Source: Persephonella sp.
GTDB taxonomy: Bacteria > Aquificota > Aquificia > Aquificales > Hydrogenothermaceae
Assembly: GCF_027023985.1 (NCBI RefSeq)
Contig: NZ_JALVTW010000035.1
Span: forward strand, 1,374 to 65,373
DNA: 64,000 nucleotides
Direction of reading: 5' to 3'
Below are positions 2,593-63,453 of the stretch, one piece after another. Position 1 is the first letter of the stretch. Each line of letters starts with the position of its first letter. The translations under genes were made by a program, and so were the position numbers. A model generated the notes under the pieces. It saw nothing but the letters and a program-made list of their open reading frames with translations. It was not told the DNA's origin and did no database searches.

Positions 2593-3304
2593 CCTTCCCT
2601 TCTCCTTCTATTTTTTCAAGTATTTTTTTGTATCCTTCTATAAGGTCTCCAAGGTCAAATCTAAATCTATCTTTATCAAGGCTTTCTCCTGTTTTGGCAT
2701 CCCAGAATCTACATGTATCAGGTGATATTTCATCTGCAAGAACTATCTCACCATCTTTTCTTCCAAATTCCAGTTTAAAATCAACAAGGATTATTCCCTG
2801 TTTTGCCATAAAATCTTTGATGATTTCATTTACTTTCAGGGCAAGTTCTTTCATCTTTTGAACTTCTTCAGGTTTTGCCAAATTCATAGCATATATGTGT
2901 TGTTCACATATTATCGGGTCGTGGAGTTCATCATTTTTTAGATAAAATTCAACCAAAGGTGGATTAAATTCAGTTTTTTCCGGAATACCAAGTCTTTTTA
3001 CTATACTTCCTGCTGCAATATTTCTGACAACAACCTCAACAGGTATTATTTCAACTTTGTATATAAGCATCTCTCTATCTGAGAGCTGTTTTATAAAGTG
3101 TGTTGGGATACCTTTTTCGTTGAGAAGTTTAAAGAAAAAAGAAGCTATTGTGTTGTTAAGGACACCTTTTCCTTTTATTGTAGCTTTTTTAAGTGCATCA
3201 AAAGCTGTTGCAGAATCTTTGTAATAGGCTATTACTTTATCAGGCTCGTCTGTGGCATATATGATTTTCGCTTTTCCCTCATACAGTTTTTCTCTTTTTT
3301 CCAT
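2585..3304 (-). CDS. purC: SAICAR synthetase
   Basis: LYEGKAK, PVEVVVRN, LVDFKLEFG, LADEISPDTCRFWD motifs. Confidence 0.97.
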   Translation of the reverse strand: MEKREKLYEGKAKIIYATDEPDKVIAYYKDSATAFDALKKATIKGKGVLNNTIASFFFKLLNEKGIPTHFIKQLSDREMLIYKVEIIPVEVVVRNIAAGSIVKRLGIPEKTEFNPPLVEFYLKNDELHDPIICEQHIYAMNLAKPEEVQKMKELALKVNEIIKDFMAKQGIILVDFKLEFGRKDGEIVLADEISPDTCRFWDAKTGESLDKDRFRFDLGDLIEGYKKILEKIEGEGKDA

Positions 3305-3314
3305 TAAAATCCTC

Positions 3315-3950
3315 CTATAAATTCTCTTTAGCTAAAAGTTTAAAGTAGTCATATTTTGAAAGCTGGAGAATTTCATTAAATATATTTTTTGCTTCTGAAG
3401 AATTACCTGTTTTTTGCAGCGTGAAAGCCTTTAGAGTAAGTGCTGAAATATAGTTATAATATCTCTGGTCTATTGTTTTGATTGTATTTAATGTTTTACC
3501 ATACTCTTTGTTTTTGTAATACAGATATCCTTTATACTCTGTAAGTCCTGCGTTAAGCTGCTGAGAGTTAAGCCTTACCTGTAATTTGTTTATATCTTCA
3601 GGAGTTATTTTGTTCTTGTCTTTTTTGATAAGAAGGTCATAGGCAATTGCAACTTTAACAAATGGGGAATCTGGATACTCTTTTTTTATTTTATCTATAA
3701 GTTTTTGGGCTTCTTGATATTTCTTGTCCTGATAAAGTTTGCTGATTTGATAGGCTATTGATGAGGATTTATTAAGAATTTCCTGTTGATGATGTTTGTA
3801 ATAGAAAAATGCAACTATCAGCAAAATAATTAAGACTATACCTGCAATAAAAAGTTTGATATTTTTCCTGACAAAGTCATAGAACATATAGACTTTATAT
3901 TCAAACTCAATATCAACATCTTGTTCAAGGGGAAGTTTTTTCTTTTCCAT
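3315..3950 (-). CDS. Membrane-anchored TPR protein, YfgM-like
   Basis: Single N-terminal TM helix followed by a TPR-like helical domain. Confidence 0.65.
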   Translation of the reverse strand: MEKKKLPLEQDVDIEFEYKVYMFYDFVRKNIKLFIAGIVLIILLIVAFFYYKHHQQEILNKSSSIAYQISKLYQDKKYQEAQKLIDKIKKEYPDSPFVKVAIAYDLLIKKDKNKITPEDINKLQVRLNSQQLNAGLTEYKGYLYYKNKEYGKTLNTIKTIDQRYYNYISALTLKAFTLQKTGNSSEAKNIFNEILQLSKYDYFKLLAKENL

Positions 3951-43716: not shown

Positions 43717-44751
43717 TTGAGCCTGAAAGAAGATATAAAAAGCTTAGGAGAAGAGGCAAAAGCCCTTATCCAGAAAGCAACTGATCTAAAACAGCTTAAT
43801 GATATAAGGGTAGCGTTTTTAGGTAAAAAAGGTAAGCTAAAAAATATCCTGAAAACTTTAGGGAAACTATCCCCTGAGGAAAGAAAAGAGATAGGTCAGC
43901 TTGCCAATAAAATAAAAGAAGAATTAGAAGAGCTTTTAAAGTCTCAGGAAACAACTCTAAAACAAAAGGCTTTAGAGGAAGAACTTCGTAAAGAAAAAAT
44001 TGATATAACTCTTCCGGCAAGCTGGATAGATATTGGTTCTTCCCATCCTGTTATATCAACATTAATTGGGATTTCCGAGATATTTATATCTATGGGCTTT
44101 TCTGTTGCCGAGGGTCCAGAGGTTGAAAAGGAAGAGTATAACTTCGATATGCTAAATATCCCTAAAGACCATCCGGCCAGGGATATGCAGGATACATTTT
44201 TCCTGAACAACGGGGATATCCTAAGAACGCACACATCCCCTGTTCAGGTTAGAACAATGCTTACAAGAAAACCACCAATCGCAATAATTGCACCTGGCCG
44301 TGTTTACAGAAAAGATGCAGACCCAACCCACTCACCGATGTTCCACCAGATAGAAGGTCTACTTGTTGATGAAAATGTGACATTTAGAGACCTGAAAGGT
44401 ATCCTGAAAATATTCTTAGAATCTGTATTCGGCAAAGACGTAGGCATAAGATTCAGACCAAGCTATTTCCCATTTACAGAACCATCAGCAGAAGTTGATA
44501 TAAGCTGCACAGTTTGCGGTGGAAAAGGATGCCGTGTCTGCAAAGGAACAGGATGGCTTGAGATACTCGGATGTGGAATGGTTGACCCTAATGTATTCAA
44601 AGCGGTAAATATAGACCCTGATAAATATTCAGGATTTGCATTCGGGCTTGGTATAGAAAGGATTGCAATGCTTAAATACAGAATTACCGATATCAGACTA
44701 CTATTTGAAAACAACATGAGATTTAACCATCAGTTCAAGGGGATAAGATGA
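43717..44751 (+). CDS. pheS: Phenylalanyl-tRNA synthetase alpha
   Basis: HPARDMQDTF, LRTHTSP, HSPMFHQIEG, YFPFTEPS, FGLGIER. Confidence 0.98.
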   Translation: MSLKEDIKSLGEEAKALIQKATDLKQLNDIRVAFLGKKGKLKNILKTLGKLSPEERKEIGQLANKIKEELEELLKSQETTLKQKALEEELRKEKIDITLPASWIDIGSSHPVISTLIGISEIFISMGFSVAEGPEVEKEEYNFDMLNIPKDHPARDMQDTFFLNNGDILRTHTSPVQVRTMLTRKPPIAIIAPGRVYRKDADPTHSPMFHQIEGLLVDENVTFRDLKGILKIFLESVFGKDVGIRFRPSYFPFTEPSAEVDISCTVCGGKGCRVCKGTGWLEILGCGMVDPNVFKAVNIDPDKYSGFAFGLGIERIAMLKYRITDIRLLFENNMRFNHQFKGIR

Positions 44752-47162
44752 GAGTTCCTTATTCATGGATAAAAGAGTTTCTTGATATAGATGAACCTGC
44801 AGAGAAGGTAGCAGAAAAACTTAATGAAACAGGTATTGAAACAGTTGTAGAAAAGTTTGGACAACCGATAGGCAATATTGTTGTTGTAAAAATACTCTCT
44901 GTTGAAAAACATCCTGAAAGGGATAGACTTCTTATATGCAGAGTTACCGACGGAGATAAAGAGTATCAGGTAGTAACAGCAGCCAAAAATGTATTCACAG
45001 GTGCAAAGGTTATACTGGCAAAGGAAGGAGCCCAGATAGGTGATATCACTATAAAACCTGTAAAATTCGGCTCCTTTCAATCTGAAGGAATGTTCTTATC
45101 CCTTGAGGAATTAGGTCTTGCAGAAAAAGCAGAAGGGGTTTTGATACTTCCTGATGAAGTAAAGGAAGGCACAGACCCAAATAAACTCCTTGGACTTGGT
45201 GAGGATTACATATTTGAGATTGAGATAACCCCAAATAGAGGAGATGCTCTCAGCGTTAGGGGTTTAGCCAGAGAAATAGGGGCTATTTTCGGTATTAAAA
45301 GAAAAGAAAAATATCCTGTTGTTTCAATAGCACAGGAAAATCCACCACAGATAGAACTCCAAACAGACAAAGTAAGCAGATACAGAGGAATAGTAATCAA
45401 AGGGGTAAAAATCCAGCCTTCTCCATTTGACCTGCAGCTGAAACTTATAAAATGTGGACAAAACCCAATCAATAATGTGGTGGATATCACCAACTATATT
45501 CTCCTTCAGGAAGGGCAACCTTTACATGCCTTTGATTTAAATAAAATTAAAGGCAAGGTTATAGTTAGAAATGCAAAAGAAGGAGAAACAATTATCACCC
45601 TTGACGGAGAAGAGAGAAAACTAACAACTGAAGATATTGTGATAGCAGATGAAGAAAAACCAATTGCAATAGCCGGTGTAATCGGCGGAGAAAACACAAA
45701 AGTTGATGAAAACACAACAGACATTCTCCTTGAGGCTGCAGTTTTTGATAATATCTCTGTCAGAAAAACAGCAAAAAGACTGGCTATCAGCACAGAGTCT
45801 TCATACAGATTTGAAAGGGGAGTGGATATAGAAAATCTCCCAAATGCTCAGGATAAAGCAGTTGAACTTATTGTGAAACTTGCAGGTGGAGAGGCTGTAG
45901 GTGAAACAGATATATACCCTAAACCATATCAACCTGCAAAAATAAAACTTAGAGAAAAAACTACCAGCAGAATTTTGGGAATAGATATCCCCAAAGAAAG
46001 GGCAAAAGAATTACTGGAAAGACTTGAAATCCCTACAGAAATTGTAGAAGATGGAACAATCTCAGAAATACCGGCATTCAGAGCATTTGATTTAGAAAGG
46101 GAGATAGACCTTGTTGAAGAGGTTGGCAGATTAGAAGGCCTAAATAAACTGGAAGAAACATATCCATCAATATCTGTAAAAAGCTATAAAAAAAGTGATA
46201 GCTTTCTGTTTGAGCTGAGAACAAGAGATTTCTTCAAAGATAACGGCCTTGATGAGGTCGTAACCTATACCTTTGTTGATGAGGACATTTACAACATTTT
46301 AGGACTTCCTGTCCCTCAGATACAGATTAAGAACTATCTACTAAAAACACAGAGTATAATGAGGGACAACCTTGCAGTTAGTTTGATAAAAACTCTGCAG
46401 CATAACTTAAGATTCCAGAATAGAGACCTGAAAATATTTGAAATATCATCTGCTTTCTTTGAAGACCATGAGGAGGTAAGGGCAGGAATTCTGGCAACAG
46501 GTAGATATATAAAAGGATTTAACTACACAAAAGGTGATAAAAAGTTCTCCACAACTGAAAAATGGGATTTCCTTAAGCTGAAAGGTATTATAGAAAGTTA
46601 TCTACATGGTTTAGGTTTTACAGATGTTGAGTATAAACCTTCAGAAAAGCCGTTCCTTAATCCTTACGAATCTGCCGAAATTTATGTAAATAATCAAAAT
46701 ATTGGGTATTTAGGCAGAATACATCCAGAGAAAGCAGATAAACTGGAAATTCCTAAAGATGTCTATATTGGAGAGCTAAAACTGAGATATGTTTCAAGAA
46801 AACTACAGGAAGACACATTAAACAAAACAGGTTATCTGTTTAACCTGTATTTAACAAGAAAACTTCCTGAGTTTAAAGAACTTCCTAAATATCCATCTGT
46901 TAAAAGGGATTTTGCATTTGAAGTTGACGAAAATCTGCAGGTGGATAAATTATTAAAAGCTATAAAAGATAGCTCAAACCTTGTGGAAAAGGTTGAGCTG
47001 TTTGATGTTTACTTTATTGATAAAAACAGAAAAAGCGTTGCTGTTTCTGTTGAATTCAGAGCAGAGGACAGGTCTCTGTCTGATGAAGAGGTAAATAAAA
47101 TTTCTGAAGAAATGATTGAAAAGCTTGAAAAAACTTTTGAAAACCTGAAACTTAGAGCATAG
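44748..47162 (+). CDS. pheT: Phenylalanyl-tRNA synthetase beta
   Basis: ITPNRGD, NVVDITNY, RFERG, FDX-ACB C-terminus. Confidence 0.97.
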   Translation: MRVPYSWIKEFLDIDEPAEKVAEKLNETGIETVVEKFGQPIGNIVVVKILSVEKHPERDRLLICRVTDGDKEYQVVTAAKNVFTGAKVILAKEGAQIGDITIKPVKFGSFQSEGMFLSLEELGLAEKAEGVLILPDEVKEGTDPNKLLGLGEDYIFEIEITPNRGDALSVRGLAREIGAIFGIKRKEKYPVVSIAQENPPQIELQTDKVSRYRGIVIKGVKIQPSPFDLQLKLIKCGQNPINNVVDITNYILLQEGQPLHAFDLNKIKGKVIVRNAKEGETIITLDGEERKLTTEDIVIADEEKPIAIAGVIGGENTKVDENTTDILLEAAVFDNISVRKTAKRLAISTESSYRFERGVDIENLPNAQDKAVELIVKLAGGEAVGETDIYPKPYQPAKIKLREKTTSRILGIDIPKERAKELLERLEIPTEIVEDGTISEIPAFRAFDLEREIDLVEEVGRLEGLNKLEETYPSISVKSYKKSDSFLFELRTRDFFKDNGLDEVVTYTFVDEDIYNILGLPVPQIQIKNYLLKTQSIMRDNLAVSLIKTLQHNLRFQNRDLKIFEISSAFFEDHEEVRAGILATGRYIKGFNYTKGDKKFSTTEKWDFLKLKGIIESYLHGLGFTDVEYKPSEKPFLNPYESAEIYVNNQNIGYLGRIHPEKADKLEIPKDVYIGELKLRYVSRKLQEDTLNKTGYLFNLYLTRKLPEFKELPKYPSVKRDFAFEVDENLQVDKLLKAIKDSSNLVEKVELFDVYFIDKNRKSVAVSVEFRAEDRSLSDEEVNKISEEMIEKLEKTFENLKLRA

Positions 47163-47219
47163 GAAGGCTAAAGCGGTAATAATGGAATTTTATATAGATT
47201 TTTATAAAAGAATACGTTT

Positions 47220-47375
47220 CCTGCGGGGCTCGATAGGGATGTGACGATAGTTTCTGGGCTATAGCTACTGGAAAGGGAGCCCTATATCCCGTGTATCCCG
47301 TGGGAACACGGTGCGGGCACCCACCTTTGATTTGGGTCCAGAAAGGGACTCACCATCCCGTCGGCCCTCCGCGGG
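47220..47375 (+). ncRNA. ssrS: 6S RNA (core rod; may extend to 47162-47398)
   Basis: GC-rich irregular hairpin: 47220-47244 pairs with 47350-47375, TTTCTGGGC with GTCCAGAAA, AAAGG with CCTTT, CCGTGT with ACACGG, leaving a central bubble. Sits upstream of ygfA, the conserved ssrS-ygfA synteny. Ends are estimated. Confidence 0.8.
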
Positions 47376-47392
47376 GTTTTATACCGCGTTGG

Positions 47393-47412
47393 CCTTCCAT
47401 GTTAATGGGAGG
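47393..47412 (+). promoter_or_regulatory. Hairpin sequestering the ygfA Shine-Dalgarno
   Basis: CCTTCCAT-GTTA-ATGGGAGG; SD GGAGG at 47408-47412, TTG start at 47418. Confidence 0.6.
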
Positions 47413-47417
47413 TCAGA

Positions 47418-47975
47418 TTGAAAGAGAGTATTAGAAAAGAGATTTTAAGTAAGAGATTAAGCCACAGGCAGATTGAGGAGCAGTCTGCCAAAATAGCAGA
47501 AAAATTCTGCTCCCTGCCTGATGTAAAAAATGCAAAGAATATACTTCTTTACTATCCTCATAAAAATGAGGTAGACACAAGACCTCTTATTGAAAAACTT
47601 CTAAAAAAATCAGATATTTCTGTCTTCCTCCCTAAAGTTTCAGGTGAAGATATTTTACCTGTTCATGTCAAAGACCTGTCCTCACTAAAGTCAGGCTATG
47701 CAGGAATTAAAGAACCGGAAGGATTACCTGTAAATCCAGAAGAACTTGATATTGTTGTTGTTCCGGCTATTGCATTTGACAAAAGAGGGCATAGACTTGG
47801 ATATGGCAAAGGATATTACGATAGGTTTTTAAAGAAAACTAATGCACTGAAGGTGGGGTTTGCATTTGATTTTCAGGTGATTGATGAGCTACCAGTAGAA
47901 GAACATGACATTCCTGTGGATTTAATCATAACCCCTACCAGAGTAATAAAGACAAAGGAGGAAGAGAAAAGATGA
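47418..47975 (+). CDS. ygfA: 5-formyltetrahydrofolate cyclo-ligase
   Basis: NEVDT, LPKV, GIKEP, VVPAIAFD...RLGYGKGYYDR, EEHD. Confidence 0.95.
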   Translation: MKESIRKEILSKRLSHRQIEEQSAKIAEKFCSLPDVKNAKNILLYYPHKNEVDTRPLIEKLLKKSDISVFLPKVSGEDILPVHVKDLSSLKSGYAGIKEPEGLPVNPEELDIVVVPAIAFDKRGHRLGYGKGYYDRFLKKTNALKVGFAFDFQVIDELPVEEHDIPVDLIITPTRVIKTKEEEKR

Positions 47976-49633
47976 TAGAGATAATAGTTGGAGTTTCAGC
48001 TTTAGCAGTAGGAGGCGCTGCAGGATTTGCAGCATGCAAGACAACTGTAGGAAAAGCACTTCAAGAAAAAGAAAAAGAAGCAGAAAGGATAATTGCTGAA
48101 AAAAATAGAATTGAGTCAGAAGCAAAAAGAAAAGCTGAGGAAATCATCAGACAGGCAGAAAAAGAAGCAATGATTAAGGCAAAAGAGATTGAAAATGAAG
48201 CTTTGCAGCTGAAAAAAGAGCAGGAAATTATTATTGAAAAAGAAATTCTCAAAAGAAAACAACAACTTGAAGAAGAACTTAAAAAGGAAAGGGAAGAACT
48301 TCAAAATCTTGAAAAAACCCTTATGACAAGGGAAGCTCAACTTGAGAAAAGAATTGCAAGAATAGAACACAGAGAGGAAGAACTTGAGAAAAAATGGGAC
48401 GAGGTTAAAAAGTTAGAGGAAGAAATCAAGGCTATCCAGAAAGAGATTGAAGAAAAAGAACAAAAAATCAAAGCTGCAGAGGAGCAGTATATCCTTGAGC
48501 TCCAGAGAATCGCTTCTATGACTAAAGAGGAAGCCAGAGAAGAGCTTATGAAAAAAGTTGAAGAAGAAGCAAAATTAGAAGCTGCTAAACTGATGAAAGA
48601 GATAGAAGAAGAAGCAAGAAAAGAAGCAGAAAAAGAGGCAAAATGGAATCTGGTTACAGCAATACAGAGACTTGCACCAGAAGTAACAACATCATATACA
48701 ATCTCTGTTGTTGACCTGCCTTCCAACGACCTAAAAGGTAGAATTATTGGAAGGGAAGGTAGAAATATCAGAGCATTTGAGATGGAAACAGGAGTTGACC
48801 TGATTATTGATGATACCCCTGACATTGTTACGATTTCATCATTTGACCCTCTTAGAAGGGAAATAGCAAAAGAATCCCTTGAAAGATTGATAGCAGACGG
48901 AAGAATACATCCAGGAAGAATTGAAGAGGTAGTATCAAAAGTAAAAGAAGAAATGGAAGCAAAGGTCAGAAAACTTGGTGAAGAAACATGTCTTGAGCTT
49001 GGATTTACAGATGTCCATCCTGAACTTTATTACTACATAGGAAAACTATACTATAGAACATCCTATACACAAAACGTTCTGCTGCATACAAAAGAAGTTG
49101 CATACCTTGCAGGAATGATGGCTGCTGAACTGGGACTTGATGAAAAAGCAGCCAGAAGAGGAGGTTTAATGCATGACATTGGAAAATCTATTTCCCACGA
49201 AGTTGGGGGTTCCCACTCTAAAGTCGGAGCAGAACTGGCAAAAAGATACGGAGAACCTGATGTGGTTATAAATGCAATTCTTTATCACCATAATGATGAG
49301 CCTGCAAGATATCCGGAAGCGGTCTTAGTAGCTGCTGCAGATGCTTTATCAGCAGCAAGACCAGGAGCAAGAAGAGAAGCTCTCCAGTCTTATATCAACA
49401 GACTGGAAAAAATTGAAGCCATTGTTAACTCATTTGAAAATGTTGAAAAATCATTTGCTATACAGGCAGGAAGAGAAGTTAGGATTATAGTAAACGCAGA
49501 AAAATTATCAGATGAAGAGGCATATCTTCTGACAAAAGAAATCGCAAAAAGAATAGAAAAAGAAGTAGAATTCCCAGGACAAATCAAGGTAACCACAATC
49601 AGAGAATCAAGATTTGTAGAAGTTGCCAAGTAA
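47972..49633 (+). CDS. rny: Ribonuclease Y
   Basis: TM helix, coiled coil, KH (KGRIIGREGRNIR), HD domain (LMHDIGK), AADALSAARPGAR. Confidence 0.97.
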   Translation: MIEIIVGVSALAVGGAAGFAACKTTVGKALQEKEKEAERIIAEKNRIESEAKRKAEEIIRQAEKEAMIKAKEIENEALQLKKEQEIIIEKEILKRKQQLEEELKKEREELQNLEKTLMTREAQLEKRIARIEHREEELEKKWDEVKKLEEEIKAIQKEIEEKEQKIKAAEEQYILELQRIASMTKEEAREELMKKVEEEAKLEAAKLMKEIEEEARKEAEKEAKWNLVTAIQRLAPEVTTSYTISVVDLPSNDLKGRIIGREGRNIRAFEMETGVDLIIDDTPDIVTISSFDPLRREIAKESLERLIADGRIHPGRIEEVVSKVKEEMEAKVRKLGEETCLELGFTDVHPELYYYIGKLYYRTSYTQNVLLHTKEVAYLAGMMAAELGLDEKAARRGGLMHDIGKSISHEVGGSHSKVGAELAKRYGEPDVVINAILYHHNDEPARYPEAVLVAAADALSAARPGARREALQSYINRLEKIEAIVNSFENVEKSFAIQAGREVRIIVNAEKLSDEEAYLLTKEIAKRIEKEVEFPGQIKVTTIRESRFVEVAK

Positions 49634-49744: not shown

Positions 49745-50970
49745 ATGAAAATCGCCCCTGCAGACAATGTCTGGATTTTAGTTTCAACAGCCCTTGTTTT
49801 ACTGATGTCTATTCCGGGACTTGCTATTTTTTACGGAGGTCTTACCAGAACAAAAAATATCTTAAACACAATTATGATGGTTTTTGGAACCTTTGGTGTT
49901 GTTAGTCTGCTGTGGATTTTATTTGGATACTCTTTAACGTTTGGAAATGATATCGGCGGAATAATAGGAAATCTGCAGTATTTCCTATTATCAGGAATAA
50001 AACCTTCTGACCCTGCACCTGCAGCAGAAAATCTTTACCATTATTTATTTATATTCTTCCAGATGACATTTGCAGCAATTACCGTTGCCCTTATGGCTGG
50101 TGCTTTTATTGAAAGAATGAAATTCTCTGCATGGCTAATTGTATCTGCATTATGGGGAATTTTTGTTTATTTCCCTGTAGCCCACTGGATATGGGGTGGA
50201 GGTGGCTTTCCAATTTAGGAACACTGGATTTTGCCGGTGGTCTTGTCGTTCATGAAACATCAGGATTGGGTGCACTGGTTGGAGCGTTTATATTAGGCAA
50301 AAGAAAAGAGCCTATAATGCTACCTGCTAATCTTGCACTTGTTGCAATAGGAACAGGGCTATTGTGGTTTGGATGGTTCGGATTTAACGGTGGTTCTGCA
50401 CTTGGCATATCTGCACAGGCCGTATCAGCAGCATTTACAACATCTATTGCTGCATTTATGGGTGGTTTAACATGGATGTTCCTTGAATGGATATTATTCA
50501 AAAAACCAACCTCCCTTGGTATGTTTACAGGAATAATAGCAGGACTTGCCACCATTACCCCTGCTTCAGGTTTTGTTGATCTTGGGGCTGCTTTAATTAT
50601 AGGAATACTTGCAGGTATCGTATGTTTTACAGCTGTTGTATATGTAAAAAACAAAGTTGGATATGATGATTCTCTGGACGTATTTGGTGTTCACGGTGTA
50701 GGTGGAATGCTTGGGGCTTTATTACTGGCCGTATTTGCAAATCCAGATATAGCTGATGTTGCCGGAATTATTTATGGAAGTGCTTCACAATTAATGCCAC
50801 AGATAATTGGTATTATCGCCGTTGGTATTTATACAATTATTGTTTCTGCAATCATATTTAAAGTAGTTGATGTTATTATTGGCCTCAGAGTTCCTAAAGA
50901 ATATGAGATAGAAGGCCTTGATGAAAGAATTCATGGTGAAAGGGTTATGAACGAACCTATAAAATTTTAG
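49745..50970 (+). pseudogene. amtB: Ammonium transporter Amt with a one-base deletion near 50201-50205 (pseudogene or sequencing error)
   Basis: ORFs 49745-50218 and 50131-50970 join into one 408-aa Amt (FFQMTFA, HWIWGGG|WLSNLG, DFAGGLVVH, DVFGVHG). Confidence 0.85.
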
Positions 50971-63362: not shown

Positions 63363-63453
63363 GGAGGGTTGGCCGAGCGGACGAAGGCGGGTGATTTGAA
63401 ATCACTTGAGGGTTAACAGCCCTCCGGGGGTTCGAATCCCTCACCCTCCGCCA
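63363..63453 (+). tRNA. tRNA-Ser (anticodon TGA)
   Basis: Acceptor GGAGGGT/ACCCTCC plus G-CCA; anticodon arm GGTGA-TTTGAAA-TCACT; long variable arm; GTTCGAATC. Confidence 0.96.

Follow-up and report, generated by a model that had tools for sequence, protein, structure and literature searches.

A long-range helix around 6S RNA and a mutually exclusive SD hairpin before ygfA form a candidate translational switch in Hydrogenothermaceae

Introduction

6S RNA is a global regulator of RNA polymerase, and its gene is frequently linked to ygfA, a linkage that has been known for two decades and for which we know of no mechanistic explanation. The locus described here raises the question of whether the RNA around 6S could itself govern access to the ygfA RBS. 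It comes from Persephonella sp. (Hydrogenothermaceae, Aquificota), where a 64-kb window (the whole stretch of DNA analysed) carries the gene order pheS-pheT, 6S RNA, ygfA, rny. An earlier note on this DNA, made from the sequence alone, had proposed that a helix enclosing 6S and a hairpin burying the ygfA SD exclude each other, and that this could regulate ygfA and, through it, RNase Y.

Results

Features of the locus

The sequence statements in the earlier note (helix arms, hairpin, SD, ATGA overlap) were all verified against the window sequence, and profile matches bear out its gene calls for pheT, ygfA and rny (Table 1). The TAG stop codon of pheT (47160-47162) abuts and overlaps the 5' arm of the outer helix, and the SD of ygfA (GGAGG, 47408-47412) lies 5 nt upstream of the TTG start at 47418. 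6S RNA is recognised both by a covariance-model score above the gathering threshold and by a rod backed by compensatory changes: the RNAalifold consensus contains 51 predicted pairs, made up of the 6S rod and the anti-SD hairpin, and the 17 that show double changes are nearly all in the rod. No Rfam family other than 6S reached its gathering score in this region. A ligand-sensing riboswitch was considered and rejected, as no Rfam aptamer class reached gathering score and the part that varies is an AU-rich spacer without conservation.

Table 1. Positions, in window coordinates, of the genes and RNA elements between pheT and rny
Feature	Position	Strand	Evidence
pheT (phenylalanine-tRNA ligase beta subunit)	44748..47162	+	TIGR00472, 754 bits
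Outer-helix 5' arm, proposed anti-anti-SD	47156..47178, core 47162-47178 GGAAGGCUAAAGCGGUA	+	Fold, duplex energy, conservation and covariation in 30 loci
AU-rich spacer, 5' arm to 6S	47179..47214	+	Alignments; length and sequence vary among relatives
6S RNA (SsrS)	47215..47381	+	Rfam RF00013, 54.0 bits vs gathering score 46.4, model positions 1-187 (full-length)
Outer-helix 3' arm, with anti-SD CCUUCC 47393-47398	47382..47403, core 47382-47398 UACCGCGUUGGCCUUCC	+	Fold, conservation, covariation
SD-sequestering hairpin	47390..47415: 5' strand 47390-47400, loop GUUA 47401-47404, 3' strand 47405-47415 including SD	+	MFE fold without 5' arm
ygfA/fau (5-formyltetrahydrofolate cyclo-ligase), TTG start	47418..47975	+	TIGR02727, 180 bits, profile match from residue 2
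rny (RNase Y), 47972-49633, with its own SD AAGGAGG (47955-47961)	47955..49633	+	TIGR03319, 628 bits

A conserved helix encloses 6S

The core of the outer helix joins GGAAGGCTAAAGCGGTA (47162-47178) to TACCGCGTTGGCCTTCC (47382-47398) by 10 bp, one A/G mismatch and a further 6 bp; the pheT stop codon ends on the first G of GGAAGGCTAAAGCGGTA, and the MFE fold adds five outer pairs (47156-47160 with 47399-47403). The duplex of the two arms has a computed energy of -28.7 kcal/mol, compared with a mean of -9.2 +/- 3.4 and a best value of -25.6 over approximately 9,090 background windows of the 64 kb, and no other stretch within the window pairs equally well with either arm. The helix is found in all 30 Hydrogenothermaceae loci (29 first examined, plus the P. 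marina-like locus L050), with a predicted length of 16-30 bp (mean approximately 23). At every locus the start of its 5' arm lies within -13 to +4 nt of the end of the pheT stop codon, and its 3' strand continues from the closing stem of 6S after a gap of 0-6 nt.

RNAalifold on an unbiased MAFFT alignment took the SD hairpin as consensus and did not recover the outer helix. The 5' arm is out of register in this plain MAFFT alignment, so the helix was instead assessed on anchored mini-alignments and by an alignment-free comparison of cognate and non-cognate arms. In the anchored alignment 90.6% of cells are paired, four pairs change on both sides and 16 cells are compensatory, a level of covariation that was reached in none of 500 shuffles; position 7, for example, reads C:G in 7 cases, U:A in 9 and U:G in 4, with no mismatches. 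Sulfurihydrogenibium-type loci use different arm sequences, such as GUCAGG-A-GCUGAAAA with UUUUCAGC-C-CCUGAC. When arms were paired at the level of clades, cognate combinations averaged -27.4 kcal/mol vs -19.1 kcal/mol for non-cognate ones (8 kcal/mol better), which was matched by 0 of 20,000 clade-level permutations. The enclosing helix proposed from the single sequence is thus a family-wide structure kept by compensatory changes.

The direct continuation of the 3' strand from the 6S closing stem, taken together with the differing stem lengths of 6S family members, could also suggest that the mature 6S is simply longer (approximately 47162-47398), with the outer helix as a basal extension of its closing stem and ygfA on a separate transcript. 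We consider this very improbable, as a functional RNA of this shape would have to carry an unconserved AU-rich bulge of 25-110 nt and very variable length, and the Rfam model is already matched end to end by 47215-47381. Additionally, in some relatives the 5' arm falls inside pheT codons, and L014 and L038 have a terminator-like hairpin in the spacer.

The helix and the SD hairpin are mutually exclusive

When the 5' arm is omitted from the folded sequence, the MFE structure is a local hairpin with the core CCTTCCAT-GTTA-ATGGGAGG and extensions out to 47390 and 47415. At -17.6 kcal/mol it is the most stable RBS hairpin among the 57 ORF starts in the window (mean -3.8 +/- 3.1), and in the Hydrogenothermaceae alignment 93% of its cells are paired, with three covarying pairs in the upper stem. 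The hairpin that had been proposed to bury the ygfA SD is therefore both conserved and covarying. A role for it as an intrinsic terminator was rejected, since it has no U tract and AGAUUGAAAG comes directly after it, and no terminator-like site was found within 46900-47700.

The exclusivity proposed for the window holds in each of the 30 Hydrogenothermaceae loci: 7-13 nt of the hairpin 5' strand, including all 5-6 anti-SD nucleotides, fall within the outer helix. This overlap persists even with 15-40 nt of extra 3' spacer, which would permit a helix that does not overlap the hairpin. In L019, the variant CCUUCU pairs with AGAAG of the 5' arm and the SD retains a G.U pair. The ygfA SD thus sits in a stable local hairpin, and its anti-SD has a second, exclusive pairing that is conserved and covarying, as would be expected of a switch. 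As the helix takes up the anti-SD and the hairpin otherwise hides the SD, the 5' arm would act as an anti-anti-SD.

Folding models with and without the 5' arm reproduced the toggle predicted in the earlier note, in which removal or occlusion of the arm closes the SD. The modelled probability of an unpaired SD is 0.41 (37 °C) and 0.63 (70 °C) when the arm is present, compared with 0.016 and 0.055 when it is left out; at 70 °C, where folding energy parameters are rough, it is 0.50 with the arm free and 0.02 when a ribosome footprint covers the pheT stop codon. About a third of the loci (L015, L016, L022, L025, L026 and L047) have a low computed SD opening of 0.06-0.3, and the energy balance is thus not uniformly tuned. 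We regard the two-state structure as confirmed in its conservation, covariation, exclusivity and computed toggle. That the toggle would gate ygfA translation is plausible.

The same three-way complementarity and exclusivity could operate in the reverse direction, with a 30S subunit on the ygfA SD freeing CCUUCC so that the helix forms and 6S is processed, in which case 6S maturation would report on downstream initiation. 6S biology is tied to growth state, which would suit such a report. We give this idea hardly any credence, as the sequence order places the 3' arm ahead of the SD in transcription, so that the outer helix can form first.

Aquificaceae have the hairpin and lack the arm

Nine loci from Aquificaceae (Aquifex, Hydrogenivirga, Hydrogenobacter and Thermocrinis; L051, L059-L063, L143, L144 and L146) have the same pheT-6S-ygfA-rny order and, like Hydrogenothermaceae, a conserved GCCUUCC before ygfA. 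Their SD hairpin (CUUCC-CCUCCUG-loop-CAGGAGG-N-GGAAG) is even stronger than that of Hydrogenothermaceae. In contrast to Hydrogenothermaceae, they have no AU-rich spacer, 6S begins 2-10 nt past the pheT stop codon, and there is no significant 5' arm. An outer helix was looked for and rejected here, as duplexes formed by the 3' end of pheT with the 3' flank do not outperform shuffled sequences. The SD is modelled as closed under all conditions, even when a ribosome footprint covers the pheT stop codon. A metagenome scan with an Aquificaceae ygfA profile retrieved distant ygfA genes of many phyla and one relevant locus, L063. 6S at gathering score was found beside none of 20 distant ygfA loci, and at the ygfA-rny loci of Omnitrophota and Planctomycetia no 6S was found even at E < 0.5. 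The anti-anti-SD is a family-level addition and not a general feature of 6S-ygfA loci.

An Aquificaceae hairpin that is always modelled closed, with no 5' arm, may have a role that needs no opening. This bears on the possibility that the hairpin is a constitutive attenuator and 5' stabiliser throughout, keeping ygfA translation low and shielding the mRNA 5' end after 6S release, with the helix used otherwise (for instance, to insulate 6S folding from ribosomes terminating on pheT) and the RBS not opened in vivo. The occurrence of the hairpin in both families, the weak TTG start, the preference of the RNAalifold consensus for the hairpin and the several loci predicted to be mostly closed are all consistent with this. 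We nevertheless find it quite improbable, as it leaves unexplained both the precise pairing of the 5' arm with the anti-SD in every member of Hydrogenothermaceae and the substantial opening predicted in most of their loci.

The spacer and the origin of 6S

The distance from the pheT stop codon to the 6S stem ranges from 44 to 105 nt across relatives. The earlier note had suggested an internal start here, with a possible -10 element (TATAAA, 47203-47208). A consensus scan of the spacer found no sigma-70-like promoter, and a positional conservation profile of the relatives found no -10/-35 pair spaced by 16-18 nt and conserved at a fixed distance from 6S. The only pattern seen is ATG-N(15-17)-TAAAA(A/G), in closely related clades, and the information content of the spacer is low overall. 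A leader peptide, with its start at the conserved ATG downstream of the 5' arm, was considered and rejected, as the ORFs enter 6S in differing frames and are not conserved. The spacer may serve either as a weak promoter or as a single-stranded region for cleavage.

In A. aeolicus, where 6S adjoins pheT, 6S is depleted in the TEX-treated library (382 vs 1384 reads), compared with 5239 vs 456 reads for SRP RNA, indicating that the 5' end of 6S is mostly processed (PMC4227106). By analogy, co-transcription of 6S with pheT is plausible in the family studied here. A search for RNA sequencing runs covering the window region or the relatives L005 and L027 found none, and three vent metatranscriptomes from the L027 sample gave neither reads nor contigs there.

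Such processing is the basis of a serious rival to a switch, namely that the outer helix is only an RNase III-type site that frees pre-6S from a pheST-6S-ygfA-rny transcript, the overlap with the anti-SD being a by-product. RNase III is well characterised in Aquificota. The helix exactly brackets a stable ncRNA, and its length in the family is about that of two helical turns, like that of RNase III substrates; the 21 bp in the window are the near-continuous duplex of approximately 20 bp or more that would be expected to flank the mature RNA of a processing stalk. Covariation, moreover, shows a helix and not a switch, and helix length fits a stalk equally well. As a complete account, however, this is unlikely, as the anti-SD lies inside the helix at every locus even where spare 3' spacer is available, GGAAG is kept in the 5' arm even inside pheT codons (L015, L019 and L012), and 6S of Aquificaceae matures without any such stalk. 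Cleavage in the stalk would also leave a ygfA mRNA that starts at the anti-SD hairpin and so alter RBS access, which makes a complete lack of regulatory meaning hard to sustain. We would like to note that an RNase III stalk is compatible with a switch.

The link to rny

The ATGA overlap between the ygfA stop codon and the rny ATG had been taken in the earlier note to suggest translational coupling and, with it, a tie between the switch and RNase Y supply, possibly autoregulatory. The overlap itself stands. Coupling would call for an overlap and a downstream gene without its own RBS, and rny carries its own canonical AAGGAGG in all 28 loci; the ygfA/rny junction ranges from -14 to +27 nt and is overlapping in 19 of the 28. 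Translational coupling is therefore not supported, the link to RNase Y is weak, and its autoregulation through the switch is speculation.

Discussion

Our reading, put forward tentatively and at slightly less than an even chance, is that the pheT-ygfA region of Hydrogenothermaceae is a bistable RNA in which access to the ygfA RBS depends on the 5' arm. In one state, a long-range helix of approximately 16-26 bp would connect the bases at the pheT stop codon with those immediately 3' of 6S, looping out the AU-rich spacer and the entire 6S rod, and its 3' strand would consume CCUUCC and leave the ygfA SD (GGGAGG) single-stranded. In the other, CCUUCC would pair with GGGAGG instead, and the resulting local hairpin of 8-15 bp would hide the SD. 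The RBS would then be presented only by RNA with a free pheT-proximal arm, that is, by unprocessed pheST read-through on which the arm is clear of the terminating ribosome. RNA without the arm, whether after 6S excision, after pheT decay or from a 6S-proximal start if there is any, would adopt the closed hairpin and be poorly translated. The outer helix very probably also sets the boundaries for excision of 6S from the pheST transcript, and 6S processing would be the event that flips the switch. We infer that ygfA translation would follow the toggle, and the same goes for its cellular trigger and for any effect on rny.

A more ambitious version, which we think rather unlikely, places 6S inside a translational switch with its own excision as the signal. 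Uncut 6S would keep ygfA translatable and affect the rny message in its stability or polarity, and cutting, by RNase III in the stalk and/or RNase Y in the spacer, would let the hairpin close.

In E. coli, the 6S gene (ssrS) lies directly upstream of ygfA (fau) on the same strand; work by Chae et al. in 2011 is said to have found that 6S is co-transcribed and processed out and that ygfA depends on read-through, with Rho-dependent termination. The scheme proposed here shares with it the release of 6S by processing and a tie between downstream expression and what becomes of the 6S transcript. In contrast to the locus described here, the fold of the E. coli fau region has no enclosing helix and no SD-sequestering hairpin, the gene upstream of 6S is zapA instead of pheT, and rny is absent.

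The outer helix resembles the RNase III-cleaved stalks of 16S and 23S rRNA in being a long-range helix of approximately two turns around a structured ncRNA, with compensatory changes. It differs from them in that its 3' strand also serves as the anti-SD in the RBS hairpin of the following gene and its 5' strand lies on a stop codon, and in that cleavage here is a prediction.

Switches built from an SD, an anti-SD and an anti-anti-SD include the long-distance interaction of phage MS2, which makes replicase dependent on coat translation, and RNase III-dependent unmasking of an RBS occurs in the lambda N and E. coli adhE leaders. In all of these, as proposed here, the SD is buried in a local hairpin whose formation depends on a distant complementary segment or on processing. 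Unlike in MS2-type switches, the distant segment here is approximately 220 nt upstream, across a whole ncRNA gene, and the models predict that the downstream RBS closes, instead of opening, when a ribosome sits on the upstream stop codon. The earlier note knew of no description of such an anti-anti-SD arrangement around 6S; literature searches likewise turned up none, and the two-state arrangement is apparently undescribed.

The element, of approximately 260 nt, would show in compact natural form how a long-range anti-anti-SD can act across an entire ncRNA, and it offers a concrete hypothesis for how 6S matures from the pheST transcript in Aquificales. Among its relatives, Persephonella marina and Sulfurihydrogenibium are cultivable. 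If 6S excision does act as the signal, one RNA-processing feedback circuit would couple the synthesis of a global regulator of transcription to that of an enzyme of folate salvage and perhaps also to that of the main RNase that initiates decay. A conserved architecture that ties 6S to the ygfA RBS would give the linkage of these two genes a testable mechanism, and the same would apply to the siting of its other arm at the stop codon of a gene for an essential aminoacyl-tRNA synthetase.

Gene neighbourhood

The RNase Y protein has its nearest relatives in hydrothermal-vent MAGs of Persephonella and other Hydrogenothermaceae, and the DNA runs containing the window stretch are vent metagenomes. 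Elsewhere in the window, amt (ammonium transporter; 49745-50970) consists of two overlapping ORFs, 49745-50218 and 50131-50970, the former covering amt profile positions 1-148 of 406; the split is a frameshift, a pseudogene or an assembly error. At 63363-63450 lies a tRNA of 88 nt that has a long variable arm (Rfam tRNA, 52.8 bits).

Genes and RNA flanking the 6S junction (window positions)
Feature	Position	Strand	Basis
pheS	43717-44751	+	gene call
pheT	44748-47162	+	gene call and profile match
6S RNA	47215-47381	+	Rfam full-length match, 54.0 bits vs gathering score 46.4
ygfA (5-formyl-THF cyclo-ligase), TTG start	47418-47975	+	gene call and profile match
rny	47972-49633	+	gene call and profile match

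Two conserved helices at the 6S-ygfA junction

The sequence statements of the earlier note were all correct when checked on the window sequence. The 5' arm, GGAAGGCUAAAGCGGUA (47162-47178), whose first base is the final base of the pheT UAG stop, pairs with UACCGCGUUGGCCUUCC (47382-47398) through 10 bp, one A/G mismatch and 6 bp, and in the MFE fold of 47155-47435 five extra pairs bring this outer helix to 21 bp in total, so that it closes off the 6S rod along with 36 nt of AU-rich spacer. The arm duplex reaches -28.7 kcal/mol; none of approximately 9,090 windows from the same 64 kb, each tried against either arm, was as stable (mean -9.2 +/- 3.4, best -25.6). When folded without the 5' arm, the MFE structure has a 12-bp hairpin (47390-47415) burying the ygfA SD, GGAGG (47408-47412); at -17.6 kcal/mol this hairpin is more stable than the structure at any other of the window's 57 ORF starts (mean -3.8 +/- 3.1). 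Both structures exceed chance.

An RNase Y scan of species-representative genomes yielded 28 Hydrogenothermaceae loci with the order pheT-intergenic-ygfA-rny, to which a Persephonella marina-like locus was joined. An alignment-free duplex search found the outer helix in every family locus (-24 to -40 kcal/mol); across 30 loci its predicted length is 16-30 bp (mean 23), and its 5' arm always starts within -13 to +4 nt of where the pheT stop codon ends. The covariation alignments were hand-anchored on the helices and are biased towards them; with that bias, the outer helix in alignment A3 (Persephonella/Hydrogenothermus-type loci, anchored on the two sub-helices) has standard pairs in 90.6% of cells, dropping to 35-51% in slid registers, and two-sided changes at four pairs (16 compensatory cells), while the SD hairpin is paired in 93% of cells in relatives, with three covarying upper-stem pairs. 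For each helix the observed covariation was matched by 0/500 shuffles. Helix position 7 is C:G (7), U:A (9) or U:G (4), with 0 mismatches, and past GCGG, U:A and A:U alternate. RNAalifold on a plain MAFFT alignment, which mis-registers the 5' arm, picked the hairpin and not the outer helix.

In Sulfurihydrogenibium-type loci, most of the helix is swapped for other sequence (e.g., GUCAGG-A-GCUGAAAA with UUUUCAGC-C-CCUGAC). Arm-arm duplex energies compared in a 9 x 9 matrix of clades, a test that is alignment-free and without the anchoring bias, averaged -27.4 kcal/mol for cognate and -19.1 for non-cognate arms; the best partner was the cognate in 8/9 rows, and 0/20,000 clade-level permutations equalled the cognate advantage. 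From the covariation and this test, the outer helix is therefore a selected structure. Thus, both helices claimed in the earlier note are present, conserved and covarying across Hydrogenothermaceae loci.

In three loci (L003, L005, L023), an extra palindrome, GGCTTTATATAAAGCC, separates the 3' end of 6S from the 3' arm; the outer helix there still takes the anti-SD, not the spare palindrome. L026 and L046 have a lineage-specific insertion of ~16 nt, GGAGGTGGCTTTATGCCAC, in the 6S rod, within its 5' half (columns 136-151 of alignment A2), and L027 and L029 have a shorter version. In another MAG locus (L028, about 2948-3501), ygfA is apparently frameshifted (tblastn gives two segments, and the expected start does not lead into an intact ORF).

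Mutual exclusivity and modelled switching

The mutual exclusivity of the two helices, also put forward earlier, holds in 30/30 loci: the outer helix takes 7-13 nt of the hairpin's 5' strand, including all 5-6 SD-pairing nt. Judged by predicted pairing, exclusivity is a Hydrogenothermaceae family trait. The overlap is kept in lineages whose 6S and 3' arm are separated by 15-40 additional nt and in which a helix without overlap could have formed; this favours selection. It is also kept where GGAAG of the 5' arm must be coded by the last pheT codons (L015, L019, L012/13/21), and in L019 an anti-SD CCUUCU faces a 5' arm AGAAG, a Watson-Crick compensation with the SD retaining a G.U pair. These cases, too, support selection for the overlap.

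By partition-function folding, in which thermodynamic parameters at 70 C are only approximate, the mean probability of an unpaired SD was 0.41 at 37 C and 0.63 at 70 C with the 5' arm, and 0.016 and 0.055 without it; with 40 nt of pheT included it was 0.50 at 70 C when the arm was free and 0.02 with a ribosome footprint at the pheT stop codon. Arm loss thus closes the SD in the models, a comparison suggested in the earlier note. The probability varies widely among loci (0.06 to 0.86), about one-third of which are predicted to be mostly closed at equilibrium. From sequence order we infer that the outer helix would have a kinetic head start where the 5' arm is free, because the 3' arm is made before the SD.

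We tentatively explain these features, with slightly less than even confidence, by a switch of three elements, with the arm next to pheT as a putative anti-anti-SD for ygfA; as far as models can tell, this core idea withstood every computational test run. The length of the outer helix also fits an RNase III-type processing stalk. As a sole function, such a stalk is a less likely but serious alternative; against it, the anti-SD is always part of the outer helix and Aquificaceae process 6S without a stalk. A stalk is compatible with the switch, because its cleavage would leave a ygfA mRNA starting at the closed hairpin. It is unlikely that the helix belongs to an extended mature 6S, which would hold an unconserved bulge of 25-110 nt.

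The spacer and rny

No promoter was demonstrable in the spacer by consensus scan and positional conservation profile, which leaves the internal start upstream of 6S proposed earlier, and a transcript class starting at 6S, as no more than a possibility. A conserved ATG lies 3-8 nt past the 5' arm (window 47182-47184; equivalent in 18/30 loci), followed in close clades by TAAAA(A/G) after 15-17 nt. Neither frame nor length is conserved in ORFs from this ATG, which may have been inherited by chance or belong to a weak promoter. In the spacers of L014 and L038 (both about 2690-2720), a small GC hairpin, GGGGCTTAAACCCC, precedes a T-rich tail; as a possible weak terminator of pheT, it would leave the arms apart on some transcripts.

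Gene order is what backs the proposed RNase Y autoregulation, which is speculative. A canonical SD of rny itself, AAGGAGG (window 47955-47961), lies 6-11 nt before the ATG in 28/28 Hydrogenothermaceae loci, and at the ygfA/rny junction the two genes range from overlapping by 14 nt to lying 27 nt apart (L001-L050); translation of RNase Y does not require that of ygfA.

Phylogenetic distribution and novelty

The order pheT-6S-ygfA-rny also occurs in nine Aquificaceae loci, including Aquifex, Hydrogenivirga, Hydrogenobacter and Thermocrinis. Unlike in Hydrogenothermaceae, 6S there begins 2-10 nt past the pheT stop, without the AU-rich spacer, so that a ribosome terminating there would unwind the bottom of the stem that closes 6S. 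A conserved GCCUUCC lies within a bipartite SD-burying hairpin, CUUCC-CCUCC(UG)-loop-(CA)GGAGG-N-GGAAG, and in the models the SD stays closed whatever the condition; pairing of the pheT 3' end with the 3' flank was not significant in the nine loci. The anti-SD of the hairpin downstream, CCUCCUG, recurs at the 6S 5' end in these loci (CUCCUG...). In A. aeolicus, 6S is located next to pheT and is depleted in an exonuclease-treated dRNA-seq library (382 vs 1384 reads), in which SRP RNA gave 5239 vs 456 reads (PMC4227106). The depletion indicates that the 5' end of 6S arises by processing, as would fit its excision from a pheST transcript.

E. coli zapA-ssrS-fau shows neither the outer helix nor the SD hairpin. 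In MAG contigs of Omnitrophota and 'Planctomycetia' (L033-L042), rny directly follows ygfA, but Rfam searches found no 6S there, even with all hits below E 0.5 admitted; ygfA and rny are thus paired more widely than 6S is linked to them.

A full-text literature search found no account of the enclosing helix or the SD hairpin at the 6S-ygfA junction, and neither ygfA nor RNase Y is named in a survey of Aquificales ncRNAs (PMC4227106). SD sequestration, long-range competition and processing stalks are already known logic. The novelty lies in the arrangement, with the entire 6S gene between the switch arms, one of them lying on the pheT stop codon and the other doubling as the ygfA anti-SD. Given its occurrence in both families, the SD hairpin is probably ancestral in the two Aquificota families sampled, Hydrogenothermaceae and Aquificaceae, and the spacer and 5' arm are Hydrogenothermaceae additions.
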